This document shows positions 1 to 55,312 of a stretch of DNA of 64,000 nucleotides, in pieces. The first letter of the stretch is position 1, and every line of letters begins with the position of its first letter. The notes beneath the pieces are model-generated. The model saw only the letters and a list, made by a program, of their open reading frames with translations, ran no database searches and was not told the DNA's origin. Position numbers and translations under genes: made by a program. Source of the DNA: Minisyncoccota bacterium (GTDB lineage Bacteria; Patescibacteriota; Minisyncoccia; Phycocordibacterales; SBAW01); NCBI GenBank assembly GCA_035546615.1, contig DASZWM010000005.1, positions 1 through 64,000 on the forward strand. Reading direction: 5' to 3'.

Positions 1-123
1 CGGCAGGACGCTGCCCTGCTGGTGCTGCATCGCCTGATTGCAAGGCTCGTTGTGCCTCGGCGCGCGCTCGGCGCCCAGGGACGGCGGCTTATCGTTGCTG
101 CTGTTCACGAAGATCTCCTGTAA
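1..123 (+). CDS. Possible 3' end of a CDS running off the window start (frame 1, TAA at 121-123). Strand is ambiguous because a reverse-strand open frame (GTG at 108..106 preceded by GGAG) also covers 1-108.
   Basis: Open frame with GC-rich third positions on both strands. It is followed by an approx 120-nt AT-richer spacer before the next gene. No recognisable motif. Confidence 0.2.
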   Translation, partial: RQDAALLVLHRLIARLVVPRRALGAQGRRLIVAAVHEDLL

Positions 124-244
124 AGAATCGCCGCCCTCAAGGCAGCGACTATGAGTATACAATAGCATGATTTAACAATAAGGTCAATGCTTCCGAAGGA
201 AGCGCGGTAGGAAGTACTGAGCCTTTCTGATACCATGTCCGGGC

Positions 245-1093
245 ATGAAAATATTCCTGAAAAGCGCGCTCCAGGGGGCCGTGTATGTTTTTGCCGTCAT
301 CGGTTTCCTCTTTACGGCGGTGTTCTTCGCGATGCAGCTGGGACTCTTAAATGTTCGCGGCTCCATTGCCGAGCGCAACGCGTTCTTCCTCGGCTCCGCC
401 ACTTCCACCGTGCCGTCGCAGCCGTGCCGGGACGCGGATATGAACGTATGCGCCTGGAGCGAGACGCCTGAGTGGGAAGTTGTGAAGGGCGGGCTCAGCA
501 AAGACGCGCCCATCATCGCGCGCGTCTCGCAAGAGACCGGCGTTTCGGCGCGCATGATAGCGGCGGTCATCGTGCCGGAGCAGATGCGCTTCTTCACTTC
601 CAACCGCGAGGTGTTCAAGCGCTACTTCGAGCCGCTCAAGATCCTCGGGTCGCTCTCGCAGTTCTCGCTCGGCGTCTCTGGAATCAAGGAGGATACCGCC
701 AACGCGATAGAAGCATACGCTAACGACCCGACGTCTCCCTTTTATCCTGGCGCGGGCGTAAGCGCGCTTATCGCATATCCGGCGGGCACGGACCACGACG
801 CCGAGCTCTACAATAGGCTCACCGACGCGAAGGACCACTACTATTCGTTGCTCTATACCGCGCTCTATATAAAGGAAATCGAGTCGCAGTGGTCGCGCGC
901 CGGCTACGACATTTCAAATAATCCGGGAGCTGTTGTTACGCTCTTCAACATCGGCTTCGCGGGCTCGCATCCGAACGCATCTCCGCGCGCCGCAGGCGCC
1001 GCTATTGAGGCAGGAGGAAAGACATACGTATACGGACAATTGGGAGCGGAGTTCTACAACTCAAACGAGCTCCGTGAGGTGCTGCCGCAGTAA
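245..1093 (+). CDS. Hypothetical membrane-anchored protein, N-terminal TM helix then extracytoplasmic domain.
   Basis: 282-aa ORF. Hydrophobic segment AVYVFAVIGFLFTAVFFAMQLGLL near the N-terminus. Amino-acid composition is protein-like. No recognisable catalytic motif. Confidence 0.5.
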   Translation: MKIFLKSALQGAVYVFAVIGFLFTAVFFAMQLGLLNVRGSIAERNAFFLGSATSTVPSQPCRDADMNVCAWSETPEWEVVKGGLSKDAPIIARVSQETGVSARMIAAVIVPEQMRFFTSNREVFKRYFEPLKILGSLSQFSLGVSGIKEDTANAIEAYANDPTSPFYPGAGVSALIAYPAGTDHDAELYNRLTDAKDHYYSLLYTALYIKEIESQWSRAGYDISNNPGAVVTLFNIGFAGSHPNASPRAAGAAIEAGGKTYVYGQLGAEFYNSNELREVLPQ

Positions 1094-18780: not shown

Positions 18781-19242
18781 TTACGCCTTCGAGCCTTCCT
18801 TGTACTTAAGGACGATGTGGCGGAATTTTCCTTCCCCCTGGGACTCCGTCTTTATTTCCGGATCTTCCGAGAACAGCTCGTGCACCACCAGGCGCTCGTA
18901 CGCGCTCATGGGGCCGAGCTCTACGTCATGCTTGAAAAGCCGCGCGCGCTGGGCCAGCATAGAGGCATTGGCGCGCACCGCATCCATCTTTTCCTCGTAA
19001 AAGCGGTTGACGTCGATCAAGAAGCTCGCGGCCTCCTCACCGTATTTCGCCTCCACCAGGCGCTTCGCCACGGTATTGAGCGCGCGAAGGTGGTCGCCAT
19101 CCGGCCCGATGAGCTCCTTGGCGTCGGGAGAGGCAATAGCCACGACCGTGCGGTGGCCGGTCGATATGTCGAGACTGGTGACCTCTGCGCCGAGCAAGCC
19201 GATGAAGGAAGTCATAAAATCTTTCAGAGCGGCGGCATCCAT
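18781..19242 (-). CDS. khpB: KhpB/Jag-type RNA-binding protein (KH + R3H domains).
   Basis: Lies downstream of yidC as in the conserved rpmH-rnpA-yidC-jag operon. R3H-like C-terminus (…LGPMSAYERLVVHELFSEDPEIKTESQGEG…). Start taken at internal ATG 19242. Confidence 0.75.
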   Translation of the reverse strand: MDAAALKDFMTSFIGLLGAEVTSLDISTGHRTVVAIASPDAKELIGPDGDHLRALNTVAKRLVEAKYGEEAASFLIDVNRFYEEKMDAVRANASMLAQRARLFKHDVELGPMSAYERLVVHELFSEDPEIKTESQGEGKFRHIVLKYKEGSKA

Positions 19243-19304
19243 AAAGACACAATACCCCAGCGGGCGGGGCAGACGCAACTTTGAGAGTTTTTACGGCCTC
19301 CGGA

Positions 19305-20024
19305 TTAGTCTTTTCGGCTCAGCTGGCGCTTGATGACCAGCTCCTGGCCAAGCGACACAAGGTTGCCGGCGGCAAAATAGAGCCCAACGGCCGCCGGAAG
19401 CGAGTAGGAGACAACGCCCATCAGGACCGGCAGGAAGTACAGCATCATCTGGCGCTGCATGCGGTGGGCCGCCTGGCGCTCTTTAGGCAGGTTTGCGGCC
19501 CCGGGGGCGGTGCGCGCCATGGAAAGGTGCGCCACGCCGTACTGGAGGCCCGCCACGACGATGCTGAGCGCGATATTATGCGGCTGCATAAGCTCGAGAA
19601 GCCCAAAAAAGCTTATATCCACGACCGCCGGCACGTGCACGAAGGGGTAGAGGAGCTCGCTTGCCACGTGCGGCAACCCTTCGCGGAACAGGGCGAAGTA
19701 GAGGGCTAAAAATACCGGTATCTGGACAAGAAGCGCCAGGAACCCGGCGAACGGGTGGATATCCTTTTCCTTATAGAGCGCCATGGTGGCGCGGGCGCGG
19801 GCCTCCGAATCGTCCTTGTATTTCTTATTTATCTCGTCTATTTCCCCCTGCGCAGCCTGCATGCCCATTTGGGTCTTTATGGAGGCGGCAAAAGCCGGGT
19901 AGAACACGATGCGGGTTATAAGTGTCAGGGCGATGATGGCAAGGCCGACATCGCCCCCCGGCATGACGCCGATGAGGTAGATAAACCCGTTATAGAGGGG
20001 CTTTATGAGCAGTGTTTCAAACAT
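19305..20024 (-). CDS. yidC: Membrane protein insertase YidC/Oxa1 family (short, monoderm-type).
   Basis: Five TM helices. Conserved YidC segments (LLIKPLYNGFIYL; PFAGFLALLVQIPVFLALYFAL; MMLYFLPVLMGVVSYSLPAAVGLYF). Operon position matches. Confidence 0.85.
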   Translation of the reverse strand: MFETLLIKPLYNGFIYLIGVMPGGDVGLAIIALTLITRIVFYPAFAASIKTQMGMQAAQGEIDEINKKYKDDSEARARATMALYKEKDIHPFAGFLALLVQIPVFLALYFALFREGLPHVASELLYPFVHVPAVVDISFFGLLELMQPHNIALSIVVAGLQYGVAHLSMARTAPGAANLPKERQAAHRMQRQMMLYFLPVLMGVVSYSLPAAVGLYFAAGNLVSLGQELVIKRQLSRKD

Positions 20025-20331
20025 GTAATAGCTTTTTTAGGTCCTCTGCGAAGGCGGCTGCGGCGTTTTGAGGGGGCGCGGACAGTATAAACAGTACCAT
20101 GTGGCCGCTCTGGGGCAGAACAGCCCCCTGAAGAGCCCGATAGACCGCCCGCCTCAGGCTGTTGCGCCTGACCGCGCTTTTGGCAACCTTCTTGGAAACG
20201 ACGACCGCGCAGGCAAACGGACCTTGTTTTTCAATGTTTTTTGAGGAAAGCACCTCTCCCCGGCGGCCCCGCCCCCGGGCGATGACCTCCCGCACTTCGG
20301 CTGCGCTCAGGCGCCGGCGCTTGGGGAGCAT
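20017..20331 (-). CDS. rnpA: Ribonuclease P protein component.
   Basis: Basic 104-aa protein (LPKRRRLSAAEVREV…SKKVAKSAVRRNSLRR…). Located between rpmH and yidC. Confidence 0.85.
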   Translation of the reverse strand: MLPKRRRLSAAEVREVIARGRGRRGEVLSSKNIEKQGPFACAVVVSKKVAKSAVRRNSLRRAVYRALQGAVLPQSGHMVLFILSAPPQNAAAAFAEDLKKLLHV

Positions 20332-20334
20332 GGC

Positions 20335-20469
20335 TTAGACGCTCTTGCGCGCGCGGCCCTTGCGGGAGCGGCGCTGAAGGGTCTTGCGGCCCCCCGGGGA
20401 AGCGCTGCGCTTAAGGAACCCGTGGCTGCGGGCGCGTTTGCGCTTTTTTGGCTGGTAGGTAACTGACAT
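20335..20469 (-). CDS. rpmH: 50S ribosomal protein L34.
   Basis: Manual translation gives [44 protein letters not shown] (44 aa), the L34 signature. It was not in the ORF track because it is under 60 aa. Confidence 0.85.
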
Positions 20470-20553
20470 CCGTCAAATATAGCGTATCCCCAGTTTCTCC
20501 ACAACTTGTGCACAAAAAACGGTTTTTGACCGCCGTCGCCCTGAAGCGTATCC

Positions 20554-21909
20554 TTGGAGTACTTCGCGCCTCACATGACCACCACCAAAGAAATCTGGGA
20601 AAACGCGCTGACCGAGCTCGAGCTTGTCATTTCACGCCCCAATTTCAATACGTGGTTCAAGGATACTCACCTTATCCGTGTGGAGGAGGGAGCGGCCTAT
20701 CTCGGCGTCCCGTCCCAGTTCGCCCGCGACTGGCTTTCGACCAAATTCCATAAGGATATCCTCCATTCACTCCGGGGATTGTCGGAAAACATCCGCACGG
20801 TCGAATACGTGATATCGCGCGGCTCCAAAAAGCCGGTCGAGGAGGTTGCCACGGCCGCGCCGACGGAGCTTCCTCTCGAATCCGTGCACCAGAAGACAAA
20901 CCTCAATCCGCGCTTCACCCTTTCATCATTCATCGTGGGGCCGTTCAACGAGCTGGCGCACGCGGCGGCGCAGGCGGTCATCCGCAAGCCCGGCATCGCG
21001 TATAACCCGCTCCTGGTATACGGGCCGACCGGCTTGGGCAAGACCCACCTCATACAGGCGATAGGGAACCACTTTCGCGTGAATGCTCCCGATCGCAAAG
21101 TGCAGTACATGACGTCCGAGAAGTTCGCCATGGATTACGTCGCGTCGCTTTCCTCCGGAAAAGTGCAATTCTTCAAGGAAAAGTACCGCCAGTACGACGT
21201 GCTCATCATGGACGACGTGCAGTTCCTGGCAAAAATGGAAAAGACGAAGGAGGAGTTCTTTCACCTTTTCAACTTTTTGCACGACAACAACAAGCAATTG
21301 GTGTTCTCGAGCGATCAGCACCCCAACATGATACAAAACCTCGAAGACAGGCTCAAATCCAGGCTCAATGCGGGTATGATCGTGTCGGTCACCCCACCGG
21401 ACCATGAATCCAGGCTCGCCATCGTGCAGGCAAAGGCGGCACAGCATAATTTTATCGTCGCCAATGACGTGATGGAGTACTTGGCTTCGACCGTAGAGGG
21501 CAATGTGCGCGAGCTTGAAGGGGCGCTCAACACGCTTCTTATACAGTTCGAGATGCGCTCCAAGCCCATAACTTTGGCCGACGCCAAGCTGCTCCTGCGC
21601 GGGGCTGGGAATGCCACCAAAAAGGCGGTTTCGGTACAAGAGGTAGTTAAGACCATCGCCAACTTCTACGGCATCGAGGAGGCGAGCATTTATGAAAAGA
21701 CGCGCCGGAAGGAAGTTGTGCGGCCTAGGCAGGTCATCATGTTCCTTCTGCGCGAGGACTTCCATATATCCTTCCCGACAATAGGGGATAAAATGGGCGG
21801 CCGGGACCATACGACCGTCATACACTCGTGCGACAAGATAAAGAACGACCTCCACACCGATTCCGTATTGGCGCAGGAAATACACCAGATCCGGTTCATG
21901 TTGAAATGA
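20554..21909 (+). CDS. dnaA: Chromosomal replication initiator protein DnaA.
   Basis: AAA+ Walker A GPTGLGKTHL, Walker B LIMDDVQF, sensor motifs, and a C-terminal DnaA-box-binding helix-turn-helix (…FPTIGDKMGGRDHTTVIH…). An alternative start is MTTTKEIW at 20575. Confidence 0.95.
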   Translation: MEYFAPHMTTTKEIWENALTELELVISRPNFNTWFKDTHLIRVEEGAAYLGVPSQFARDWLSTKFHKDILHSLRGLSENIRTVEYVISRGSKKPVEEVATAAPTELPLESVHQKTNLNPRFTLSSFIVGPFNELAHAAAQAVIRKPGIAYNPLLVYGPTGLGKTHLIQAIGNHFRVNAPDRKVQYMTSEKFAMDYVASLSSGKVQFFKEKYRQYDVLIMDDVQFLAKMEKTKEEFFHLFNFLHDNNKQLVFSSDQHPNMIQNLEDRLKSRLNAGMIVSVTPPDHESRLAIVQAKAAQHNFIVANDVMEYLASTVEGNVRELEGALNTLLIQFEMRSKPITLADAKLLLRGAGNATKKAVSVQEVVKTIANFYGIEEASIYEKTRRKEVVRPRQVIMFLLREDFHISFPTIGDKMGGRDHTTVIHSCDKIKNDLHTDSVLAQEIHQIRFMLK

Positions 21910-22117
21910 TGTGGATTAGTACTGCGACTATTGTGGAAAAACTACCGGAAAAAAGTACAGCTATGAAAAATAAAATTACTACCAACACCAAGGCAACCAC
22001 TATACAGGAGTTGTTCTTTTTCAAAACCCTCTTTACAGCCTTATATGGCAACAGAATTACAGCTTATCCACGCAGTCCACAGGTGTAATAGTAATAGTAG
22101 TTTTTAAATAGAAAGAT
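21910..22117. promoter_or_regulatory. Candidate oriC (dnaA-dnaN intergenic region) with DnaA-box-like 9-mers and AT-rich tracts.
   Basis: Three 9-mers each have one mismatch to TTATCCACA or its complement: tgtggatta at 21910-21918, tgtggaaaa at 21932-21940 and ttatccacg at 22063-22071. AT-rich runs are at 21955-21985 and 22085-22115. Confidence 0.5.
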
Positions 22118-23215
22118 ATGAAATTCGAATCCACAACTGAACAGCTCCTCTCGGCGGTTTCGCTTGCAAGCAGGTTCGTGGAAAAGCGCGCGAATCTTCC
22201 GGTGCTTGCAAGTATTCTGCTTATCGCCGAAAAAGGCCGCCTGATACTGCGCGCTACCAATCTTGAATGCGGGGTTGAAATAACCGCGCAGGCCAAAGTA
22301 CTTGAAGAGGGTATCGCGGCCATTCCGGGGTCAGTATTGGCCGGGTTCCTTGGGAATGCCCGCGGCAAGACTGTATCAGCTCAGCTTTCCGGAGGCACGC
22401 TCAAGATGGAGACGGAACGCGCTTCAGCGTCTATAAAAACCGTGCCGCATGAGGACTTTCCGATATTGCCGCAGGTAGCGGCTACTACGTCGCTTACGGT
22501 TAAAGCGAGCGACCTTTCCAAGCTTATCCGCTCGGTAGCGTATTGCGCTTCGACTTCCGCGATAAAGCCGGAGCTTCAGAGCGTGCTTATCTACGGAGAG
22601 GGCGGCAAGCTTGTGGCTGCTGCGACCGACTCATTCCGCTTAGCCGAAAAGAACGTATCGTTGCGCTCGCAAGGCTCGGTACCGCAGCTCCTGGTACCCG
22701 CGCGCAACGCAGTCGAGCTTAATCGCATACTTGAAGCCGCCTCGGGCGATGTAGAGATCTATTACAACGAGCACCAGATATCGGCCCATATCGGCTCTGT
22801 GTACTACACCAGCCGCCTCATAGACGGCTCGTTCCCGAACTACCGCCAGATAGTGCCCAAGGAGTTCGCCACGGAAGCCGTCGTGCTGCGCGAAGATATG
22901 TCAGGCGCGCTCAAATCACTTTCCCTGTTCGCGGACAAGCTGGCGCAGGTTTCACTCGCTGTAGAGCCTTCCAAGAAGGCTGTGCTGCTTACCTCGCGCA
23001 ATCCGGACGTAGGCGAGCAGGTGTCCACCTTGCGCGCCACGATATCTGGCGAAGAGGCAGCTATGAACTTCAACGGCCGCTACCTGGCAGACAGCCTCCA
23101 AGCAATAACAGGGGAGAGCGTCAGGCTTTCTTCAAACGGCCCGGGCAAGCCGCTGTTGGTCAAAGACGCCGGAGACGATTCCTTCTTCTACCTGGCAATG
23201 CCGATGAACCGCTAA
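22118..23215 (+). CDS. dnaN: DNA polymerase III beta sliding clamp.
   Basis: 365 aa with three-domain clamp architecture. Conserved N-terminus (…LLSAVSLASRFVEKRANLPVLASILL…) and C-terminal LAMPMN-type motif (YLAMPMNR). Confidence 0.9.
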   Translation: MKFESTTEQLLSAVSLASRFVEKRANLPVLASILLIAEKGRLILRATNLECGVEITAQAKVLEEGIAAIPGSVLAGFLGNARGKTVSAQLSGGTLKMETERASASIKTVPHEDFPILPQVAATTSLTVKASDLSKLIRSVAYCASTSAIKPELQSVLIYGEGGKLVAAATDSFRLAEKNVSLRSQGSVPQLLVPARNAVELNRILEAASGDVEIYYNEHQISAHIGSVYYTSRLIDGSFPNYRQIVPKEFATEAVVLREDMSGALKSLSLFADKLAQVSLAVEPSKKAVLLTSRNPDVGEQVSTLRATISGEEAAMNFNGRYLADSLQAITGESVRLSSNGPGKPLLVKDAGDDSFFYLAMPMNR

Positions 23216-23219
23216 AAAA

Positions 23220-24101
23220 ATGTCCAAAAAAGAGAATCCTATAAAAATACCAAAAAGACCAACATCTTTTGGCACTCCTGCTGAGTGTGTTCGGTGGGTT
23301 AAAAAATCCGTATATCTTATCGCTCGAGGAAGAGCTTTAAATCCAGAAAAACCAAATGAGCTAAGCTGGTTTACTATTGGAACAGGTTGTGTGGTCGCCC
23401 CCAACCGTATGAGTACTGCAGCCCATGTAATCAATGACCCCTCAAGTCTTGAAAAAACAAAACAGCATCAGTCGGGCGACCAATACTACCTCATTAGACA
23501 TGACGACGAAGGCAACTGGCACTTTAAGGTTCTCACACTAGAACTTAATAAAAATTTATTTTTATATTCTGAGACTGACCTTGGAATCATTTATCTCGAC
23601 GAAGAATTTTATCAAATAGGAGAACAGATTCTCGCGCTAAAGGACGATTATATAAGAGTTGATCAAAAATTTAGAGTGATAGGTACAGAGGTCGCTGTTT
23701 TAGGATACCCTCTTTGTAAGTTAGATTTTATAGAAAAAGATCCAAACAGGCCTCAAGTGGGGGACATATTACTCAGGGTAGACACAGGGGTTATAAACTG
23801 TCGATACAGAATAGCGGAAAATGTTTATCGTTATGAGTTTACTATGGGGTTTAACCCAGGAAATTCAGGAGGGCCTATTTTTGATTGGAGGACAGGGCAG
23901 CTGCTCTCCCTCGTGCATGGTTATAAGGCAATCCCGGTTAATATGTCTGAGCGCGTAATAACCGACGAAGTTAAAAAAAATTTAAAGATTAAAGATTATG
24001 ATGGGAAGTCATTTATCGAAGTCGTTCACGCTAACTACTCAGTGGGCTACGCTACCCCATCTTTTGTGGAGACATTCAAAATACACGGGATAGTAAAATA
24101 G
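23220..24101 (+). CDS. Trypsin-like (chymotrypsin-fold) serine protease with no signal peptide, on a low-GC inserted gene.
   Basis: Catalytic His (STAAHVIND) and Ser (GNSGGPIFDW) motifs. GC content is visibly lower than the flanks (A/T-rich codons throughout, e.g. aaaaaagagaatcctataaaaatacc). It has a hydrophilic Lys-rich N-terminus and no TM segment. Confidence 0.6.
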   Translation: MSKKENPIKIPKRPTSFGTPAECVRWVKKSVYLIARGRALNPEKPNELSWFTIGTGCVVAPNRMSTAAHVINDPSSLEKTKQHQSGDQYYLIRHDDEGNWHFKVLTLELNKNLFLYSETDLGIIYLDEEFYQIGEQILALKDDYIRVDQKFRVIGTEVAVLGYPLCKLDFIEKDPNRPQVGDILLRVDTGVINCRYRIAENVYRYEFTMGFNPGNSGGPIFDWRTGQLLSLVHGYKAIPVNMSERVITDEVKKNLKIKDYDGKSFIEVVHANYSVGYATPSFVETFKIHGIVK

Positions 24102-24116
24102 TAAGGACCGTCCTTG

Positions 24117-26354
24117 CTACTGGGCGTCGTTTTGAGAATCGTTGTCTACTTGCTGGGGCGCATTGCCCACCGGCACTTCTACGCCGTCCTGGTAGCCGTT
24201 CTGCGCGGCCCAGACGCGCACCGGATACTCCCAGTGGTCGTACTGCGAGTCCTGGCCCGGATAGGCGGGAATAGGGCCGTTAGGATTGCTCTTATCCACC
24301 CAATTGAGTATTTCGTGCACGGACTGCTCAACGTATTCGATGCCGTTGCGGTTTGAAGTATTCTCGCCCTGCCAGATGCCGCGCAAGACCGGCTTGAGGC
24401 CGCTTTCGTTCTCGTCGCCGCGCGTGAATGATTCGTTGGGAGTGTGTGCGAGGGCGTACTGCATCACTTCGTGCCACATGGGGCCCACGATGAATCCGGA
24501 GACCTTCTTGACCATCGACGTATTGTCGTTGTTGCCGGCCCAGATGCCCACGACGATATTGGGCGTGTAGCCGATGGTCCATGCGTCCTTATAATCGTTG
24601 GTGGTACCGGTCTTTACCGCCACGTCGTATCCGGGGAAGCTCACCAGGTCGTTCTCGCCCAGCGGCGCGCGGGCGACCGGATCGGACAGCATGTCGTTTA
24701 TTTCCTCGGCCACGTTGGCAGGCAGTATCTGCGTGCCGGAAGACTCGGTGTTGTCCTCGATAACATTCCCCTGCGCGTCCTCTATCTTAAGCACCGCCGT
24801 CGGCGGATGCTTGACGCCGTTGTTGGCGAACACGCCGTAGGCGCTCGACATATCGAGCAGGGTCACTTCGCCGCCGCCGAGCACCAGGGTGAGGCCGTAG
24901 CGGTCCGGATGGGTGAGCGTCGTGATGCCCATGGACTTGGCGAGCTCAAGCGTGTCGTTGAGGCCCGCGAGATAGAGCACTTTGACCGCCGGAACGTTTA
25001 TGGACTGCGCCAGGGCGTTGCGCAGGGTCATGGGGCCGCGGAAGAGGTCGTCGTAGTTGGTCGGCGAGTAGCACGGATAGACGTTGCTGAAGTTGTCGAC
25101 CGCGCACGAGGTGGAGAACTGTGTTTTAACGTCAAAGACCACGGTATCGGGGGTATAGCCCTTCAGGAGCGCCTCCGCGTACGCGAAGGGCTTGAAGGCA
25201 GAGCCCGGCTGGCGGCCCGGGGCCGAGACCGCAGCGTTGTACGCGCCGTCGATCGCGGTGTCGAAGTAGTAGCGCGAGCCGACCATGGAAAGTATCTGCC
25301 CGGTCTTGGGGTCAAGCGCGATGAGCGCGGCATTGCTTGCGTTGAACTTGTCGGCATTGAGAAGCGCGTTGCGCTTTACTACTTCCTCGGCCTTCACCTG
25401 GAAATCCGCATCAAGCGTCGTAGTTATCTTCCAGCCGCTGGCGTCAACCGCATCGTCTCCGTATTTCTCTTCCAAATACTGCTGCACGAAGAAGACGAAA
25501 TGCGGCGCCTGTATCGACGAGTCGCGCGGCGTTGAAAAGACGACCTGCGCCTTCTCGGCTTCGTTCATCTCATCCTCGGTTATGTAGCCGTGCTCGCGCA
25601 TTTTCTGAAGCACCAGGTTCTTGCGGGCATCAAGCGCGTCCTTATGCGTGCCGAAGGGCGAATAGTAGGTAGGGGCAGGGAGCACGGCGGCCACATACGC
25701 GGCCTCGGGCAGCGTGAGGTCGCTTGCGCGCTTGCCGAAGAACGTCTGCGAGGCTTCCTCGACGCCGTACACGCTTCCGCCGAACGGCACCTGGTTGAGG
25801 TAGAGCTCAAGTATCTGGTCCTTGCTGTAGACCTGCTCTATTTTAACGGCCAATATCCATTCCTTGAGCTTACGTGCGATGGTCTGGTCATTCACCAGAA
25901 GCGAACCTTTGACGACCTGCTGGGTCAGGGTAGAGCCGCCCGAGCGGGTAAGGATGGTGCCGCCCGTCAATTGCGACAGGACGGCGCGCAGGATAGCGCG
26001 CACCGAGATGCCGCCGTGCTGGTAGAAATCCGGATCCTCAATCGCGATAATAGCGTGGCTGATGTTGGGCGATATCTGCGTAAGCGGCACCACGGTGCGG
26101 CGCTGCTCGTTGTTGAGGTCGTACAGGAGCACTGTGCCCGTGCGATCGTACATCTTGACCGACTGCTCTATTTTCCGGGTCGCGAGGGAAGAGAGGTCGG
26201 GAATCTGGAGGGTCGCCGCCCACAAAAGCATGAGGCCAAGGAGCACGAAAAAGGCGCTGACGCCCCAGACAAGGATGGCGCGCCAGTGTTTTCGGACGAA
26301 CTTCCAGGCTTGCCGCAGATACCGGCGGGCCCTCAGGAGCCATTTTTGAAGCAT
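24117..26354 (-). CDS. Class A penicillin-binding protein (glycosyltransferase GT51 + transpeptidase).
   Basis: N-terminal TM. GT51 motifs (EDPDFYQHGGIS; GGSTLTQQVVK; RKLKEWILA). Transpeptidase motifs SAFKPF and KTGTTND. 745 aa. Confidence 0.9.
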   Translation of the reverse strand: MLQKWLLRARRYLRQAWKFVRKHWRAILVWGVSAFFVLLGLMLLWAATLQIPDLSSLATRKIEQSVKMYDRTGTVLLYDLNNEQRRTVVPLTQISPNISHAIIAIEDPDFYQHGGISVRAILRAVLSQLTGGTILTRSGGSTLTQQVVKGSLLVNDQTIARKLKEWILAVKIEQVYSKDQILELYLNQVPFGGSVYGVEEASQTFFGKRASDLTLPEAAYVAAVLPAPTYYSPFGTHKDALDARKNLVLQKMREHGYITEDEMNEAEKAQVVFSTPRDSSIQAPHFVFFVQQYLEEKYGDDAVDASGWKITTTLDADFQVKAEEVVKRNALLNADKFNASNAALIALDPKTGQILSMVGSRYYFDTAIDGAYNAAVSAPGRQPGSAFKPFAYAEALLKGYTPDTVVFDVKTQFSTSCAVDNFSNVYPCYSPTNYDDLFRGPMTLRNALAQSINVPAVKVLYLAGLNDTLELAKSMGITTLTHPDRYGLTLVLGGGEVTLLDMSSAYGVFANNGVKHPPTAVLKIEDAQGNVIEDNTESSGTQILPANVAEEINDMLSDPVARAPLGENDLVSFPGYDVAVKTGTTNDYKDAWTIGYTPNIVVGIWAGNNDNTSMVKKVSGFIVGPMWHEVMQYALAHTPNESFTRGDENESGLKPVLRGIWQGENTSNRNGIEYVEQSVHEILNWVDKSNPNGPIPAYPGQDSQYDHWEYPVRVWAAQNGYQDGVEVPVGNAPQQVDNDSQNDAQ

Positions 26355-26409
26355 GAGGCAATTCTATCACGCCCGCCCGTATGCTAAAGTAGCTTCATAA
26401 TCTTACGGT

Positions 26410-27633
26410 ATGGGTTTCTTCTCTCGTACGCCAAAGGCCCCGCTCCCGAATGTTTCCGGGCCGCTTTCGCAGGTATTGCGCGAGCGCGGCTATGTCTATC
26501 AGCACTCCGCGCCGCTTGAGGAGATAACAGATGGCCCTAAGCGCACACTCTATCTCGGCGTCGATCCGACGGCCGATTCGATGCACGTGGGCCAGCTGCA
26601 AGGCATCCTCGTCCTGCGGCGGTTCCTCGAACACGGGCACAAGCTTATTATCGTTGTCGGCGCCGGCACGGGCATGGTGGGGGATCCCGGCGGAAAGTCT
26701 GCCGAGAGGAACTTGTTGAGCGACGAGGTGGTGGACGGCAATGCGTCCGCGCTCAAGAAACAGTTTGAACGCCTGTTCGGCGGCATGCAATTCAAGATGG
26801 TCAACAACGCCGACTGGCTCCGCTCTCTTAATTATATGGAGTTCTTGCGCGACATCGGCAAGCACTTCACGGTCAACGAGATGATAAAGCGCGACTCGGT
26901 GCGTCCGCGGCTGGAGACTCCCGACGCGAGCATCTCCTACACGGAGTTCTCCTACATGCTGCTGCAGGCCTACGACTATCTGCATTTGCATGGAAAATAC
27001 TCATGCGACTTGCAGGTCGGCGGCTCCGACCAGTGGGGCAATATAGTCTCCGGCGTCGATCTTATCCGCAAGAAAACGGGGGACACCGCGTATGCGCTTT
27101 CTTGGCCGCTCCTGACAACCCGCGACGGCAAGAAGTTCGGAAAGTCGGAGGGCAATGCGGTGTGGCTCGACCCAAAAAAGACGACGCCGTTCCAGTTCTA
27201 TCAATTCTGGATAAATACCAACGACGATGAAGCCGAAAAGTATCTCCTGAAGATGACGCTTCTGCCGAAAGCCGAAATAGAAAAGACCATGGAAGAGCAG
27301 CGGCAGGATCCGGCGACTCGCGCTGCGCAGAAGAAGCTCGCATTTGAAGTAACCGCGCTTGTCCACGGCATCGGGGAAGCTGAGAAGGCACGGGACGCCG
27401 CTCGGGCGCTCTTCAGCGGCGACGCATCCGCAGCGGCTGCGAATATGTCTGCTGTGCCGGGGGGAAGACTGCGCGATATCGTGAGCGATATGTCGGTAAG
27501 CGAGCTGCGGCGCCTCGTTGCGCAAGGCGCAGTGTCTTCCGTTACGACCGGCGCTAAAATTGAGAATGTCGAAACTGAGATACACGGCGATACTATTCGG
27601 ATAGGGAAGAACCGATTTATAAAGGTCGAATAG
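26410..27633 (+). CDS. tyrS: Tyrosine--tRNA ligase.
   Basis: Class I HIGH-type motif (DPTADSMHVGQL), KMSKS-type KFGKSEG, and a C-terminal S4-like domain. Confidence 0.9.
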   Translation: MGFFSRTPKAPLPNVSGPLSQVLRERGYVYQHSAPLEEITDGPKRTLYLGVDPTADSMHVGQLQGILVLRRFLEHGHKLIIVVGAGTGMVGDPGGKSAERNLLSDEVVDGNASALKKQFERLFGGMQFKMVNNADWLRSLNYMEFLRDIGKHFTVNEMIKRDSVRPRLETPDASISYTEFSYMLLQAYDYLHLHGKYSCDLQVGGSDQWGNIVSGVDLIRKKTGDTAYALSWPLLTTRDGKKFGKSEGNAVWLDPKKTTPFQFYQFWINTNDDEAEKYLLKMTLLPKAEIEKTMEEQRQDPATRAAQKKLAFEVTALVHGIGEAEKARDAARALFSGDASAAAANMSAVPGGRLRDIVSDMSVSELRRLVAQGAVSSVTTGAKIENVETEIHGDTIRIGKNRFIKVE

Positions 27634-27635
27634 CA

Positions 27636-27664
27636 AAACCCCCGGCGTACGCCGGGGGTTTTGC
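27636..27664. terminator. Bidirectional rho-independent terminator hairpin.
   Basis: aaaacccccggcg-tac-gccgggggtttt: perfect GC-rich stem flanked by A and T runs on both sides. It lies between the convergent tyrS and the small acidic ORF. Confidence 0.55.
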
Positions 27665-27832
27665 TTAGATAGCTTCTTCTTCGTCCTCTCCTTCCTCTTC
27701 CTCGTCTTCTTTCTTGTCTTCGTCCTCGGTCTCTTCCTCCTCTTCGTCTGCCTCGGCCATAAAGGTGCCGATTTCGGCGTCCTCCTTGTCCTCGTCCATC
27801 ATGAACTCGTCGTATGCGAACTCTTTTTGCAT
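27665..27832 (-). CDS. Small highly acidic protein (55 aa).
   Basis: Manual translation from ATG 27832: MQKEFAYDEFMMDEDKEDAEIGTFMAEADEEEEETEDEDKKEDEEEEGEDEEEAI. It lies on the minus strand downstream of ruvC and ends at the bidirectional terminator. It was not in the ORF track because it is under 60 aa. Confidence 0.35.
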   Translation of the reverse strand: MQKEFAYDEFMMDEDKEDAEIGTFMAEADEEEEETEDEDKKEDEEEEGEDEEEAI

Positions 27833-27954
27833 AGCTGCTTCAATTCGATAGCTTCTAATTTTCTGCGGTTAGGAACCAATGCCAGATTTGTACCAAACCT
27901 ATAGTTCTTTGCAACTCATTCTCCCGCACGGGTGTGTGGATATCGTGAAAGCGC

Positions 27955-28461
27955 CTATTTTCCGATGGGCACCCGTACTGACGCCGCACAGGTAAGGCCG
28001 ATAGCTATAGCGTCGAGCTCGTCGTCAAGGCGCTTGCGTGCGGGGAGCTTCACGAGGCGCGGCACCATCGCCGCAACGGCAGTCTTGTCGCCGCGGCCGT
28101 AGCCGGTAATGGCGACCTTAACCTCAAGCGGAGTGTACTGATATACCACAAGCCGGCGGCTTGCCGCAATGTAGTTCAGCATGCCCATGACCTGGGCCAC
28201 GTGTATGGCGGTCTTTGCGTTCTTTTCAAAATACACTTCTTCGAGCGCCAGGGCTGATGGCTTCCATTCTGTTATGAGCTTTTGCGCAGCGTCTCCCAGC
28301 AGGGCGAGGCGCTCGGGGAAAGGGAGCTTCGCCGATGTTCGCACGCATTCGGAATGCAGGAGTATATCTTTACCGCCCCGCCTTTCTACGACCGCGACGC
28401 CGAGCCGCTCGTAGCCCGGGTCAAATGCCAATACTCGCAAGGGCGTAGTCATACTGCTCAT
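27955..28461 (-). CDS. ruvC: Crossover junction endodeoxyribonuclease RuvC.
   Basis: RVLAFDPGYERLGVAVV N-terminal catalytic Asp motif; LEEVYF, KLITEW-type segments; C-terminal DDELDAIAIGL. Start at ATG 28461 or 28452; the ORF track starts at 28500. Confidence 0.85.
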   Translation of the reverse strand: MSSMTTPLRVLAFDPGYERLGVAVVERRGGKDILLHSECVRTSAKLPFPERLALLGDAAQKLITEWKPSALALEEVYFEKNAKTAIHVAQVMGMLNYIAASRRLVVYQYTPLEVKVAITGYGRGDKTAVAAMVPRLVKLPARKRLDDELDAIAIGLTCAASVRVPIGK

Positions 28462-28584
28462 GGTAGAACACTGCCGGCCGTATGCAATGCGAGGCAGCAA
28501 GGAGATAATTTCCTGAGCAATAGTCCGCTATTGTGAGGGAATTAGCGAGGAAGCTAACGAAGCAGGGAGGCGGCCTGCAGCGTT

Positions 28585-29112
28585 CTACGCGGCGTTTGTA
28601 TAGACCTCGTTAACATCATCGTTGTCCTCAAGCGCGTCGACGAGTTCGGAGAGCTTGCTGCCGTCTTCCTCGGAGATCTCGACGGTAGTTACGGGTTCGA
28701 GCTTGCCTTCGGCTCCTTTGGCGAAAGCCCATGACGCCGCGCCGGGCTGGGCGAGCGCGGAGCCATGCAAAGAAAGTATATGTTTTATTTCCTGCGCGGT
28801 GCGGTTGCGCGAGTCGGTGTAGCCTTCAATGACAAGCGCCACGCCGCCGGGGCCGTACGCCTCGTAGGAGACCGGCTCAAGCTCGCCGGTGGTCGACGCC
28901 TTGTCTATCGCGCGCTCGATATTGTCCGCCGGCATGTTCGCCGCTCGCGCTTTCTCGACGGCCGCGCGCACGCCGGGGGCGGTGCGGTCGCCCTTGGCCT
29001 TCTTAGCCTCTATAGAAATGAATCGCACGAGCTTGGAGAAAAGCTTCGCTTTCTGCGCGTCGGTCTTGCCTTTAGTATGTTTTAGTTTTGCCCACTTAGA
29101 ATGTCCGGCCAT
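28585..29112 (-). CDS. YebC/PmpR family DNA-binding regulator (short form).
   Basis: MAGHSKWAKLKHTKGKTDAQKAKLFSKL is the diagnostic YebC N-terminus. 175 aa. Adjacent to ruvC as in many bacteria. Confidence 0.8.
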   Translation of the reverse strand: MAGHSKWAKLKHTKGKTDAQKAKLFSKLVRFISIEAKKAKGDRTAPGVRAAVEKARAANMPADNIERAIDKASTTGELEPVSYEAYGPGGVALVIEGYTDSRNRTAQEIKHILSLHGSALAQPGAASWAFAKGAEGKLEPVTTVEISEEDGSKLSELVDALEDNDDVNEVYTNAA

Positions 29113-29215
29113 ATATCAAGACTATATACGAATCCCTATCTAAATTCCAAGAGATCGAACTGCTCTCCTAAAACCCTCTTTTTTAGGCTATATTTACCGC
29201 GATGTTGACATCTCC

Positions 29216-29245
29216 TTGACAGATGTAAACTTAAAGGGGTATTAT
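29216..29245 (+). promoter_or_regulatory. Sigma70-like promoter for the fic gene.
   Basis: TTGACA (29216-29221), 18-nt spacer, TATTAT (29240-29245). It is about 27 nt upstream of ATG 29273, in an AT-rich spacer. Confidence 0.4.
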
Positions 29246-29272
29246 CTTTACATCCTGTAGAGGGTAAAATAT

Positions 29273-30409
29273 ATGAAAATAGGAGAATTCATTCAGCAAC
29301 CCCAAGGTTTTAAAACCTTTGTGCCCGATAAGTTTCCTCACAAGGATTTATCAAGCGTTATATTAAATCCGCAAACCTCTCAGCTTCACGCCCGGGCCGC
29401 TTTTTTGCTTGGGAAGTTGGATGGCATCACTCAACTTCTGCCAGATTTGGATTTTTTCATCTTCATGTATGTAAGAAAAGAAGCGGCGTTCTCAAGCGAA
29501 ATAGAGGGCACAAGAGCGACAATGATTGACGCTATCAGAGCGGAAGTAGAACTTACTCGCGATCTGCCTAATGACGTGGAGAACATTCTAAAATACATTG
29601 ACGCAATGAACTATGGTCTTAAGAGACTCGAGAACTTTCCACTCTCTCTGCGCCTCATTCGAGAGGTACATAAGACCCTTCTTGAACAGACGCAAGGCGG
29701 TATAGGCAAAACACCAGGAGAGTTTAGAACTTCTCAAAATTGGATCGGGGGTGCCTCGCCCGCAACGGCACGCTTCGTACCACCCCCTGTCGCAGCTATG
29801 CATGACGCCCTAGGGGACTTAGAGAAGTTTCTACATAATAGTGCGGATATTCCACCTCTTATCAAAACCGCTCTTGCACACTCTCAGTTCGAAACAATAC
29901 ATCCTTTTCTGGATGGTAATGGCCGCACAGGTAGACTTCTCGTCACCTTTTACCTCTGCCAACAGGAAGTACTTGAACGTCCGGTATTGTATCTCTCTGC
30001 CTATTTTAAGAAGCATCGAGACACCTATTTTGATCTGCTTAACGGCTACCATAACAAAGGCGAAATAGTCCCGTGGCTGAACTTCTTTTTAGAAGGAGTG
30101 GCTGAAGTGGCAGAGGCAGCAATTAAGGTTTCTCAAGCCATTAATATCTTACGTGAGGAAGACCAAATGAAAATTCAGGCTTTTGGTAGGTCGGCTGGCG
30201 TAGCGATGAAAGTGCTAAGAGCGCTTTACAAACTTCCTATTGTAGACGTACGCAAAATTCAGGAGTTGACAGGCTATTCCAGAACAGCCGCGAACAACTT
30301 TGTGAAAAAGCTTGTGGATCTGGAGATTCTTGTTCAGCGTAATAAAAAAGCTACCTATGGGCGACAATTCGAATACGCACGCTATTTAAAACTCTTTGCA
30401 AAAGAGTAA
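29273..30409 (+). CDS. fic: Fic family protein (putative AMPylase) with an N-terminal inhibitory motif and a C-terminal winged-helix-like domain, on a low-GC gene.
   Basis: Fic active-site motif HPFLDGNGRTGR. SxxxEG inhibitory motif (AAFSSEIEGT) upstream in the same polypeptide (class II arrangement). GC is clearly lower than the flanks. Inserted between yebC and ruvB. Confidence 0.85.
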   Translation: MKIGEFIQQPQGFKTFVPDKFPHKDLSSVILNPQTSQLHARAAFLLGKLDGITQLLPDLDFFIFMYVRKEAAFSSEIEGTRATMIDAIRAEVELTRDLPNDVENILKYIDAMNYGLKRLENFPLSLRLIREVHKTLLEQTQGGIGKTPGEFRTSQNWIGGASPATARFVPPPVAAMHDALGDLEKFLHNSADIPPLIKTALAHSQFETIHPFLDGNGRTGRLLVTFYLCQQEVLERPVLYLSAYFKKHRDTYFDLLNGYHNKGEIVPWLNFFLEGVAEVAEAAIKVSQAINILREEDQMKIQAFGRSAGVAMKVLRALYKLPIVDVRKIQELTGYSRTAANNFVKKLVDLEILVQRNKKATYGRQFEYARYLKLFAKE

Positions 30410-30413
30410 TCGC

Positions 30414-31469
30414 CTACAACAGCTTTTGGTTCAAATCCCCGGGCACCTCGAAGCCCAAGTGCTCGTAGGCTTTGCGGGTGGCCACGCGGCCGCGCTGCGT
30501 GCGCTCGATAAGCCCCAACTGGAGCAGGAAGGGCTCATGCACTTCCGAAAGGGTATTGGGCTCCTCAGCAAGCGCCGCAGCAAGCGCGTTCACGCCGGCA
30601 GGGCCGCCGTTAAAGCGCTCAATCAAAACACTAAGAAGCTTGCGGTCCAAAGGGCTGAGGCCAAGCTCGTCTACCTCAAGCATCCCAAGCGCGGCTGAAA
30701 CCGCTTTTGCGGTAAGGGGAGTGCGCTTGAGCTGCGCGTAGTCGCGGGCGCGCTTGAGCAGGTAATTGGCCGTGCGCGGAGTGGCGCGGCTGCGCTTGGC
30801 TATTTCGCGCACGCCGCTTTCCTCTATGTCTACGCCGAGGATCTTTGCGGAGCGGCTTACTATCTGTGCAATGTCGTCTTCCGAGTAAAACTCAAGCCGG
30901 AAGACCCCGCCGGAGAACCGTGAGCGCAGCGGAGCGGAAAGATCGGCCACGCGGGTGGTGGCGGCCACCAGCGTGAACGGCGGCAGCGGGAGTTCCAGCG
31001 TGCGGGCGGATGGCCCCTTGCCGATGATGATATTGAGCACGCCCGATTCCATGGCGGGGTAGAGCACTTCTTCTATTGAATGCGAGAGGCGATGGATCTC
31101 GTCTATGAAAAGGATGTCGCCGGGCTGAAGGTTGCTGAGAAGGGCTGCGAGGTCGCCCACGCGCTCGATAGCGGGCCCCGAGGTGCTCCTGAGTGCCGCG
31201 CCCTGCTCGCGCGCTATCAAATGCGCGAGGGTGGTCTTGCCTAAACCGGGCGGGCCGTAAAAAAGGATGTGTTCCGGCGGGTTGCCGCGCTCGCGGGCGG
31301 CCGAAATGAGGATATTCAGGTTGTTCTTTACCGCCTCCTGGCCGACATATTCGTCCCACGATGCGGGCCTGAGGGTCTGGTCGAGAAAGTCCTCCTTTTT
31401 TGCATCGATAGGAGCATCCTCCGGCGTGATTTCCGGACCAAGTTCGCTCTCCTCAGGGTTGCTTGACAT
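30414..31469 (-). CDS. ruvB: Holliday junction branch migration helicase RuvB.
   Basis: AAA+ Walker A GPPGLGKTTLA, Walker B ILFIDEIHRL, sensor RSRF, and a C-terminal winged helix. Confidence 0.9.
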   Translation of the reverse strand: MSSNPEESELGPEITPEDAPIDAKKEDFLDQTLRPASWDEYVGQEAVKNNLNILISAARERGNPPEHILFYGPPGLGKTTLAHLIAREQGAALRSTSGPAIERVGDLAALLSNLQPGDILFIDEIHRLSHSIEEVLYPAMESGVLNIIIGKGPSARTLELPLPPFTLVAATTRVADLSAPLRSRFSGGVFRLEFYSEDDIAQIVSRSAKILGVDIEESGVREIAKRSRATPRTANYLLKRARDYAQLKRTPLTAKAVSAALGMLEVDELGLSPLDRKLLSVLIERFNGGPAGVNALAAALAEEPNTLSEVHEPFLLQLGLIERTQRGRVATRKAYEHLGFEVPGDLNQKLL

Positions 31470-51544: not shown

Positions 51545-51631
51545 TTGGCGGAGGGGGTGAGATTCGAACTCACGGTACCTTGCGGTACTCTTGTTTTCAA
51601 GACAAGTGCACTCGGCCTCTATGCGACCCCT
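51545..51631 (-). tRNA. tRNA-Ser (anticodon TGA), long variable arm, CCA encoded.
   Basis: Reverse complement: acceptor GGAGGGG/CCCCUCC, anticodon stem CUUGU/ACAAG with loop CUUGAAA, long variable arm AGUACCGCAAGGUACC, T-arm GUGAGUUCGAAUCUCAC, then G + CCA. Confidence 0.8.
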
Positions 51632-52113
51632 CCCTGGCGATTTTGTATCTTACCACTGTACCAGTTATTTTCTAGGTAATGTTCCTCTGAGTGACAATTT
51701 GGACAAAGTAGTTCCAGGTTATCCAGCGTATTGTGTTGCCGGTTTCTGTCTTTGTGATGTACGTTTAATATCTCATACCTTGCATATCCGCATCGTTCGC
51801 AAATGGGGCCTCGCAGTTTCAACAGACGAAGTTTCAAGCCTCGCTGGTATACAACTTTGTCCTTAGGCGCTCGACCTTTGTATTTTATTCCTGCACGGTT
51901 GGTATTGGCGCAGCCTCTGCTACATGTATTTTTGTTTGCACTAGAGAGAATAGGTTTACCGCAGACAACACAAGGGTGTTCTTTTCGAGTAGCTAGTCCA
52001 TAACAGGTTTGACTGCAAAATACTCGACCTTGTTTAATTTGACCCGGTCGTCTATAGATTGGTTTGCCACAAACTGTGCATGCAGTATTGGGATTTCTTT
52101 TATACTCATCCAC
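51619..52113 (-). CDS. HNH endonuclease, on a low-GC gene.
   Basis: Zn-finger-like CxxC pairs (CTVCGKP; CVVCGKP; CERCGYARY). HNH motif ILNVHHKDRNRQHNTLDNLELLCPNCH. GC is lower than the genome average. The last 13 nt overlap the 5' end of tRNA-Ser. Confidence 0.75.
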   Translation of the reverse strand: MDEYKRNPNTACTVCGKPIYRRPGQIKQGRVFCSQTCYGLATRKEHPCVVCGKPILSSANKNTCSRGCANTNRAGIKYKGRAPKDKVVYQRGLKLRLLKLRGPICERCGYARYEILNVHHKDRNRQHNTLDNLELLCPNCHSEEHYLENNWYSGKIQNRQGGVA

Positions 52114-54563: not shown

Positions 54564-54636
54564 GGGCGATTAGCTCAGTTGGTAGAGCAACTCTTTTACA
54601 CAGAGAAGGTCACAGGTTCGAGTCCTGTATCGCCCA
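54564..54636 (+). tRNA. tRNA-Val (anticodon TAC).
   Basis: Acceptor GGGCGAU/AUCGCCC, D-arm GCUCAGUUGGUAGAGC, anticodon loop UUUACAC, T-arm ACAGGUUCGAGUCCUGU, discriminator A. Confidence 0.8.
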
Positions 54637-54640
54637 CACT

Positions 54641-55312
54641 ATGGAAGGTCCTGCCAAACCCAGTAACAACACTAAGGAAAGCTCTCCTAAGCCTTCTGTT
54701 GAAGTTGAATCAGAGTTTGCCGAATTCGTGCCACAGGACTTCCTTAATGACCCTGTAGGATATTTTGAACGTGGAGGAAAGAATATAAAAACAGGAGAAG
54801 TTAAATATGATGAGGCTGGTGCGCTTCGTGAGGATCCAACTGCTGTAAAAGATTTACCAGTCTGGACGAATAGCAATGGAATAGAAATTCTTACGGTAGG
54901 AAGAAGGGTAAATACGATTAAGGGCGCTGTAGGAGAATCAGGAGATCCTTTCTACGAGTACAAAATCCTTGAGAAGCTTATGGAAATCGGGTTACCCGCT
55001 GCGAGGCCTATTGCGAAAGCAGAACAGGGCGGTACTCATATCATTGTCATGGAGCGTATTCCGGGGGTTAGGTGGTCTGAAAGAGAAAGTCTGAATCTCA
55101 AAGAAAAAGGATACTCTGACGAAGACATTGCAACTCTAATAAGTGAAGCAGAACAGAAAATGGATGGCCTGAAAACTCGCTTTGACGAAGCGGGAGTTAT
55201 TCGCAGTTGGAAACTGAAGGATATGGTATTTGAGATAGACATTGAGAATAAGAAAGTTATTTCTATAGTCCCCACAGATTGGGAAAGGACGAAGATTATT
55301 GAAAAGCAATAG
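54641..55312 (+). CDS. Hypothetical protein with weak protein-kinase-like-fold features, on a low-GC gene starting 5 nt after tRNA-Val.
   Basis: Hinge-like THIIVMERIPG and C-terminal SWKLKDMVFEIDIENKKVISIVPTDWE resemble small Kdo/RIO-type kinase-like proteins. Lower GC than the flanks. 223 aa. Confidence 0.4.
   Translation: MEGPAKPSNNTKESSPKPSVEVESEFAEFVPQDFLNDPVGYFERGGKNIKTGEVKYDEAGALREDPTAVKDLPVWTNSNGIEILTVGRRVNTIKGAVGESGDPFYEYKILEKLMEIGLPAARPIAKAEQGGTHIIVMERIPGVRWSERESLNLKEKGYSDEDIATLISEAEQKMDGLKTRFDEAGVIRSWKLKDMVFEIDIENKKVISIVPTDWERTKIIEKQ

Follow-up and report, generated by a model that had tools for sequence, protein, structure and literature searches.

We analysed a stretch of 64,000 nucleotides (hereafter, the window; positions 1 to 64,000 of the forward strand of contig DASZWM010000005.1, assembly GCA_035546615.1) from a Minisyncoccota bacterium, and focused on an AT-rich gene for a trypsin-like serine protease that directly follows dnaN, the gene for the DNA polymerase III beta clamp. 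The protease gene is a strain-specific insertion of a single open reading frame (ORF) in a variable slot between the convergent genes dnaN and PBP1a, and it belongs to a small, rare and horizontally moving family that is restricted to the Candidate Phyla Radiation (CPR). Given the genomic surroundings of the family, we tentatively read the gene as a conflict or defence effector.

To compare the orthologous site, the loci of DnaN relatives (82–96% identity) were retrieved and read. The gene order R3H-yidC-rnpA-rpmH, dnaA-dnaN, slot, PBP1a-tRNA synthetase-RuvC-YebC was kept in L050, L051 and L053, the relatives whose contigs were long enough for the order to be judged. The slot was empty in one relative with 88% DnaN identity, and it held cargo unrelated to the protease in those with 96%, 88% and 82% identity (Table 1). 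The window and L051 differ in cargo but have a TAAGGAnnnTCCTTGCT motif in common at the right end of the slot. Among all family loci, only that of the window is adjacent to dnaN. Given the empty or otherwise filled slot in the relatives and the absence of any other dnaN-adjacent member, the protease gene is a strain-level insertion and not a core neighbour of dnaN, and the cargo at the dnaN/PBP1a junction is hypervariable in this Paceibacterota lineage. The original prediction, made by a model from the letters of the window, had claimed recent horizontal acquisition and had proposed a look at the region downstream of dnaN in related genomes. The protease was not at this position in the related lineages, and recent acquisition is strongly supported, by evidence stronger than composition because the orthologous slot is empty or otherwise filled. 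The origin-proximal core of these reduced genomes therefore includes a slot that turns over among close relatives, which bears on how streamlined symbionts gain accessory genes.

The composition of the gene agrees with a foreign origin. Sliding-window GC content was 0.39–0.40 within the gene and 0.55–0.60 in both flanks, close to the roughly 40% against 60% first reported, and the boundaries of the low-GC tract are those of the ORF. The gene (GC 0.398) has the lowest GC content of the 58 ORFs in the window, and its GC at third codon positions (GC3; 0.357) is about 2.6 standard deviations under the window mean (0.664, standard deviation 0.118, 58 ORFs), compared with 0.66 for dnaN, 0.75 for dnaA and 0.80 for PBP1a. 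The start codon was found where it had been placed, 4 nt after dnaN, and the 15-nt spacer on the right contains the palindrome AAGGAC-c-GTCCTT. An independent Logan contig matched positions 22762–24210 at 100% identity and covered both junctions, so the arrangement is not an assembly chimera. No flanking repeats or att sites and no nearby tRNA were found around the gene, and an Rfam scan of positions 19000–31000 matched no RNA family.

The window gene lacks its own promoter and Shine-Dalgarno sequence, and promoter and terminator patterns at the locus were no more frequent than in shuffled sequence. Without a promoter, the gene is probably transcribed by read-through from dnaN and coupled to it in translation.

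The encoded protein matched Pfam Trypsin_2 (39 bits, threshold 27.6) and Trypsin (22.7 bits, threshold 20.6), both above the curated cut-offs. An alignment of 23 family members has 58 invariant columns, including H69, D120 and S216 in the order His, Asp, Ser, so the His (TAAHV) and Ser (GNSGGP) motifs first noticed in the window are part of a conserved triad. An AlphaFold model was confident (pLDDT 82.6, pTM 0.80) and has the two-beta-barrel fold, with HtrA/Deg quality-control proteases as the nearest folds. About 110 residues are particular to the family, comprising the N-terminal tail, a His/Asp-rich insert and a C-terminal hairpin and helix; the insert appears to sit at the place of the metal-binding loop of trypsins. 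In a hydropathy test, the only one applied here, no signal peptide or transmembrane segment was detected in the window protein or the family (maximum Kyte-Doolittle 19-residue mean 1.31, and ≤1.36 across the family), the N-terminus was strongly basic and hydrophilic, and none of the 23 members had a Sec, Tat or lipoprotein signal. This re-analysis leaves the predicted lack of a secretion signal in place. By every sequence feature that could be checked, the protease belongs to the PA-clan Trypsin_2 superfamily, and it is most probably a cytoplasmic, single-domain S1-type endopeptidase that is predicted to be catalytically competent.

The protein shares the double beta-barrel, the His-Asp-Ser order, GNSGGP and Pfam Trypsin_2 with HtrA/DegS/Deg (S1C) and Glu-endopeptidase (S1B) proteases, but it is only 15–21% identical to them and carries the family-specific residues described above. 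It has no Pfam match to a PDZ domain, and the NCBIfam models for HtrA, DegP and MarP all scored far below cut-off (11–12 bits for HtrA/DegP, cut-offs 416–470). Unlike HtrA, DegP and DegS, it lacks a PDZ domain, a signal peptide and a membrane anchor, and it is accessory and mobile and not core. An HtrA/DegP identity was thus rejected, given the missing PDZ domain and export signal and the low NCBIfam scores.

Searching 5.8 billion clusters yielded 222 relatives. Among the matches listed, the proteins are about 290–300 aa long, barring some truncated members, with 51–71% identity, and the named source organisms are Patescibacteria (Paceibacterota, Nomurabacteria, Buchananbacteria and similar). 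When a profile was run against 1.84 billion representatives, 38 clusters were returned at E ≤ 1e-30, all of them single-domain proteins of about 270–320 aa or fragments, with no domain fusions that would hint at function. In a scan of 185,579 species, each represented by one genome, about 29 true loci were detected, all in CPR lineages, along with a distant branch (31–38% identity) found mainly in Saccharimonadia. Metagenome-assembled genomes with a family member that are labelled Gammaproteobacteria or Flavobacteriales are probably mis-binned. Database records name the family only as "serine protease", and JGI labels some members "V8-like Glu-specific endopeptidase". Literature searches on trypsin-like defence genes in CPR and on LexA-methyltransferase fusions returned nothing specific, and no paper on the protease family was found.

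The ratio dN/dS within the family was 0.03–0.11 where dS was unsaturated, indicating strong purifying selection. For the window gene against its closest relatives, dS is saturated and gives no date for the transfer. The nearest relative of the window protein (L043, 71% amino acid identity) comes from a genome with a GC content of 0.33. Gene GC ranges from 0.29 to 0.44 in the core family and reaches 0.49 in the distant branch, with host flanks at 0.31–0.57, and the gene looks equally foreign in the other high-GC hosts L001, L008, L020 and L025. Protease identity was compared with that of a shared housekeeping orthologue in L012 (54% and 36%) and L028 (45% and 44%), although two orthologues are too few to be informative. 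No family members were detected in IMG/VR viral contigs, PHROGs or PLSDB plasmids, and INPHARED/GenBank phages gave a single 25% match by tblastn. Cargo of a phage, plasmid or integron was rejected based on the absence from IMG/VR, PHROGs and PLSDB and the lack of flanking repeats or a nearby tRNA at the window locus; serine recombinases are present only at certain other family loci.

The genomic context differs at every family locus. Roughly two-thirds of the loci have housekeeping neighbours, and the remainder lie in island-like regions; at several, the protease gene is co-directional and follows nrdAB, gyrA, groEL or glmS after a short gap at the 3' end of the operon. For 31 distinct loci, we profiled the 121 proteins whose genes are at most two genes away from the protease. 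The most common neighbour domains were Peptidase_S24 (n = 8) and LexA_DNA_bind (n = 7), and methyltransferase domains included N6_N4_Mtase (n = 5), N6_Mtase (n = 3) and Eco57I (n = 3). Restriction enzymes of the TaqI, MvaI/BcnI and DpnII types were among the neighbours, with HNH enzymes also linked. Other genes in the islands encode a HARE-HTH protein with a PD-(D/E)XK nuclease, DUF3800, DUF6602, Fic, IS1595 transposases and serine recombinases.

At 8 of the 31 loci the protease gene adjoins a fusion of LexA(S24) with the DNA methyltransferase of a type II restriction-modification (R-M) system, and the fusion gene is nearly always transcribed divergently from it. Such fusions, which join a LexA DNA-binding domain, an S24 autopeptidase and a methyltransferase (N6_N4, Eco57I/MmeI-like and others), lie upstream of the protease in L012, L014, L017, L019, L021, L022, L023, L027 and L028, with the LexA-S24 part encoded as a separate 219-aa protein in L019. 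Besides the fusion, the cassettes include a small HTH_3 gene and various restriction enzymes. The searches made found no literature on this LexA-S24-methyltransferase architecture. In a neighbour-joining tree, the LexA-linked members fall on at least five separate branches, deep ones included, which favours a functional link that is old or has recurred over a single inherited accident; the subclade of the window protein has no adjacent R-M genes. Apart from the fusion (8/31), no conserved small partner gene adjoins the protease across the loci, and none was found in the window.

The intergenic region between the fusion and protease genes contains promoter-like elements. In five LexA-linked loci a TTATCCACA box lies 16–28 nt before the protease ATG (background frequency 0.046 per kb), in the form TTATACACA in L012, and an inverted copy, TGTGGATAA, lies beside the divergent start of the fusion gene in L012 and L027. 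The box may serve the LexA-like domain as its operator, or it may be a true DnaA box.

Table 1 Features of the window and of related loci. Unprefixed positions and residue numbers refer to the window and its protease; L numbers denote loci in other genomes.
Feature	Location	Strand	Details
dnaN (DNA polymerase III beta clamp)	22118..23215	+	upstream host gene; TAA stop
Left junction of insertion	23216..23219	+	4-nt spacer AAAA between dnaN TAA and protease ATG
Protease CDS	23220..24101	+	293 aa, ATG start; predicted cytoplasmic chymotrypsin-fold serine protease (ORF list)
Right junction of insertion	24102..24116	+	15-nt spacer TAAGGACCGTCCTTG between protease stop and PBP1a stop codon
PBP1a gene	24117..26354	-	convergent downstream host gene; Pfam Transgly and Transpeptidase
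Catalytic His69 (TAAHV)	23424-23426	+	family alignment
Catalytic Asp120 (DLxxxYL)	23577-23579	+	family alignment
Catalytic Ser216 (GNSGGP)	23865-23867	+	family alignment
Basic N-terminal tail	residues 1-18		family-specific
His/Asp-rich insert after catalytic His	residues ~75-105		invariant H83, D87, D95, D96, H101
C-terminal beta-hairpin and helix extension	residues ~227-293		predicted structure
SoFic single-gene defence protein	29273-30409	+	AT-rich singleton; PADLOC PDLC03963, E 2.4e-109, full-length; Pfam Fic_N and Fic
HNH endonuclease	51619-52113	-	GC 0.436; abuts/overlaps tRNA-Ser(tga) 51546-51633
223-aa ORF	54641-55312		GC 0.426; no Pfam or PADLOC match; starts 3 nt after tRNA-Val(tac); region 54564-55312
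dnaN/PBP1a slot, empty	L050		DnaN 88%; dnaN and PBP1a overlap by 4 nt
dnaN/PBP1a slot, DUF5680 and NUDIX	L051:6071-6954		DnaN 88%
dnaN/PBP1a slot, 102-aa ORF	L053:6199-6507		DnaN 82%; opposite strand
dnaN/PBP1a slot, 2H/LigT-like phosphoesterase	L049:1206-1625		DnaN 96% aa, 86% nt; low GC (0.42); unrelated to protease
TTATCCACA DnaA-box-like 9-mer	L027:7845-7934, L017:1237-1245, L022:7928-7936, L023:2564-2572		
TTATACACA variant of the box	L012:7884-7973		
GC-rich hairpins 3' of protease stop	L017:2160-2220, L021:5840-5880, L022:8860-8900, L023:3490-3560, L014:7785-7830, L004:6910-6950		
643-aa protein upstream of protease	L004:4030-5958		also in L018

Two further observations were made at these loci. 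GC-rich hairpins occur 3' of the protease stop in AT-rich genomes, with variable stems and a conserved C-rich loop (TTCCTCCCC..CCCCTC; the G-rich inverse in L023), and their possible roles are those of a terminator, a REP-like element or a site of recombination. In L004 (also in L018) a 643-aa protein without a Pfam match is encoded directly upstream of the protease; it has a GHKL-type ATPase N-box (ELITNCDDS), lies in an island that also encodes a serine recombinase, an HTH_3 protein and an N6_N4 methyltransferase, and may represent one more island gene that has yet to be characterised.

A conflict or defence role is suggested by the LexA-methyltransferase and island context, by an insertion style like that of the SoFic gene in the same window, and by the precedent of trypsin-like domains in defence. 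In the trypsin-MBL module, a trypsin-like domain fused to parts of Hachiman, AVAST, Argonaute or retron systems activates an adjacent metallo-beta-lactamase (MBL) nuclease (bioRxiv 10.1101/2025.09.03.673762). The likeness lies in a cytoplasmic trypsin-like protease on mobile or defence DNA, and the module is a precedent for infection-triggered initiators (bioRxiv 10.1101/2025.09.03.673762). The window protease differs in being free-standing and single-domain, with no fused sensor (HamA, Avs, Ago or retron). No MBL gene lies beside it and none is among the 25 most frequent neighbour Pfam families listed, although L001 alone has one Lactamase_B gene 3.8 kb from the protease. Lacking an MBL partner and a fused sensor, the window locus was not assigned to this module. 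SoFic is a recognised single-gene defence system and, as the methods of PMC12259885 describe, an experimentally tested one. In the window it is likewise a lone AT-rich ORF of foreign origin between housekeeping genes, but its fold and chemistry are unrelated to those of the protease.

PADLOC matches were weak and confined to the protease domain (RT-Protease_XI, E 4e-7; PDC-M35A, E 3.9e-5). The match to the retron type XI profile spans only positions 334–483 of 510, and the similarity is no stronger than that to generic Trypsin_2 proteins. The window protease has neither a reverse transcriptase nor a non-coding RNA, and a retron RT-protease was rejected given the missing reverse transcriptase domain and the negative Rfam scan. 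A toxin-antitoxin module was also rejected, since no conserved small partner gene is adjacent.

In the common and probably ancestral arrangement, the protease would be divergent from the LexA-like repressor fused to the methyltransferase. Control by such a repressor suggests that DNA damage or infection stress would switch the protease on, and the enzyme might then cleave cellular or invader proteins, with abortive infection or stress suicide as the outcome. The window copy may have been captured alone, without a promoter, and be co-expressed with dnaN; a harmful protease expressed in this way would have to be restrained post-translationally, perhaps via the His/Asp-rich insert or the terminal extensions.

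Several points weigh against a role in defence. There was no specific defence-family match, as the PADLOC similarity is restricted to a generic protease domain, and neither a sensor domain nor a partner, antitoxin or MBL gene was found in the window. The 50–71% identity and constant length are atypical of fast-evolving immune sensors, and a toxic effector co-transcribed with dnaN would put the cell at risk. Purely housekeeping neighbours surround about two-thirds of the loci, the window locus included, and guilt by association is weak in CPR because R-M genes are very common there. The evidence for a toxin or phage-protection function is circumstantial and comes from genomic context. Thus, of the original interpretation, horizontal acquisition stands, and the proposed toxin, abortive-infection or anti-phage effector is favoured by the R-M/LexA-methyltransferase neighbours and SoFic but not by the weak PADLOC matches or the missing sensor, antitoxin and MBL genes; the homology and domain searches it had called for placed the protein in a CPR family of Trypsin_2 proteases, with defence matches at the domain level only. 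A defence or abortive-infection role is plausible but unproven.

A broader picture of the family is possible but doubtful. In this picture, the family would be a CPR-specific conflict gene encoding a sensor-less, free-standing cytoplasmic trypsin-like protease, whose ancestral pairing with LexA(S24)-methyltransferase would act as an SOS-like switch from R-M to proteolytic suicide or restriction alleviation. It would also move alone, as a promoter-less single-ORF cassette, to the 3' ends of operons with housekeeping genes, for example at the dnaN/PBP1a hot spot for small conflict-type cargo. Recognised defence systems other than R-M are few in CPR bacteria (Patescibacteria), whose genomes are tiny, which makes a mobile, conserved protease with links to their R-M islands a concrete candidate for a new component of immunity or R-M control. 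The protease is compact (293 aa, one gene) and easy to synthesise and assay, and the LexA-methyltransferase fusions with their operator-like boxes offer a testable regulatory model. Nothing in the analysis points to a categorically new kind of system.

We also weighed other functions. The strong purifying selection, constant architecture and HtrA/Deg-like fold, and the many loci at the 3' ends of operons (dnaN, nrdAB, gyrA, groEL and glmS), would fit an ordinary accessory housekeeping protease, used for cytoplasmic quality control or for breaking down imported peptides to supply amino acids in an auxotrophic episymbiont. We nevertheless consider this unlikely, given the very sparse distribution of the family (about 29 of 185,579 species genomes), its variable presence among close relatives, the foreign codon usage in several hosts, and the lack of a PDZ or chaperone domain together with the low HtrA/DegP scores.

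Restriction alleviation of EcoKI depends on ClpXP, a precedent for a protease that regulates an R-M system. Cleavage of the LexA-like repressor after DNA damage could induce the protease, which would degrade the restriction enzyme or another part of the module and so limit self-restriction; the window copy would then be an orphan. The divergent LexA-methyltransferase genes directly upstream at 8 of 31 loci on at least five branches are consistent with this, as are the promoter-like elements and the TTATCCACA box before the protease ATG with its inverted copy by the start of the fusion gene. The linked restriction enzymes, however, come from unrelated families (TaqI, MvaI/BcnI, DpnII and HNH), so a common substrate is unlikely, and the gene stays intact and conserved in the window subclade without adjacent R-M genes. 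Taken together, this makes such a regulatory role quite unlikely.

Non-classical export of an effector against the host cell or competitors, by a type IV pilus, a system like the type IV secretion system (T4SS) or a contact-dependent route, is improbable: none of the 23 members has a Sec, Tat or lipoprotein signal, secretion genes are not linked at the family loci, and there is no adjacent immunity gene. What speaks for it is the epibiotic lifestyle of CPR bacteria, T4SS-pilin-like genes upstream of the dnaA region in relatives, the many secreted effectors among S1B relatives (V8, Spl and exfoliative-toxin-like), the V8-like label on some members, and the conserved basic N-terminal tail, which could be a non-canonical targeting signal.

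The position 4 nt after dnaN, and those of other members after nrdAB and gyrA, might suggest a replication-linked protease working with the beta clamp, similar to the fork-associated FAM111A, for which the dnaN position would be functional. This is very improbable and was rejected as the main explanation. Adjacency to dnaN is unique to the window, and in close relatives the gene is absent from this position; FAM111A ranks no higher than dozens of other S1 proteases, and inspection of the alignment by eye revealed no QL[SD]LF-type clamp-binding motif in the conserved termini. Despite the sharp compositional contrast in a metagenome-assembled genome, a low-GC fragment of another organism spliced into the contig during assembly or binning has a negligible chance of explaining a foreign tract of exactly one ORF, 4 nt and 15 nt from host genes, with both junctions identical in the independent contig and the same pattern in four other high-GC hosts.

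Only two TTATNCACA DnaA-box matches were found in the window (2387 and 42105), none of them near dnaA (region 20331-22117) or dnaN, and the dnaA-dnaN spacer of 208 nt is AT-rich (about 0.43 GC). The absence of the box near dnaA and dnaN points either to oriC boxes that differ in this lineage or to an oriC that lies elsewhere.

The high-GC genome is peppered with single AT-rich foreign ORFs, at least one of which is a known defence gene. The SoFic gene (GC 0.447, GC3 0.43) lies directly after a YebC-like gene and about 5 kb from the protease. The HNH gene resembles an insertion next to a tRNA or a homing-type endonuclease, and the 223-aa ORF appears to be another foreign-looking singleton.

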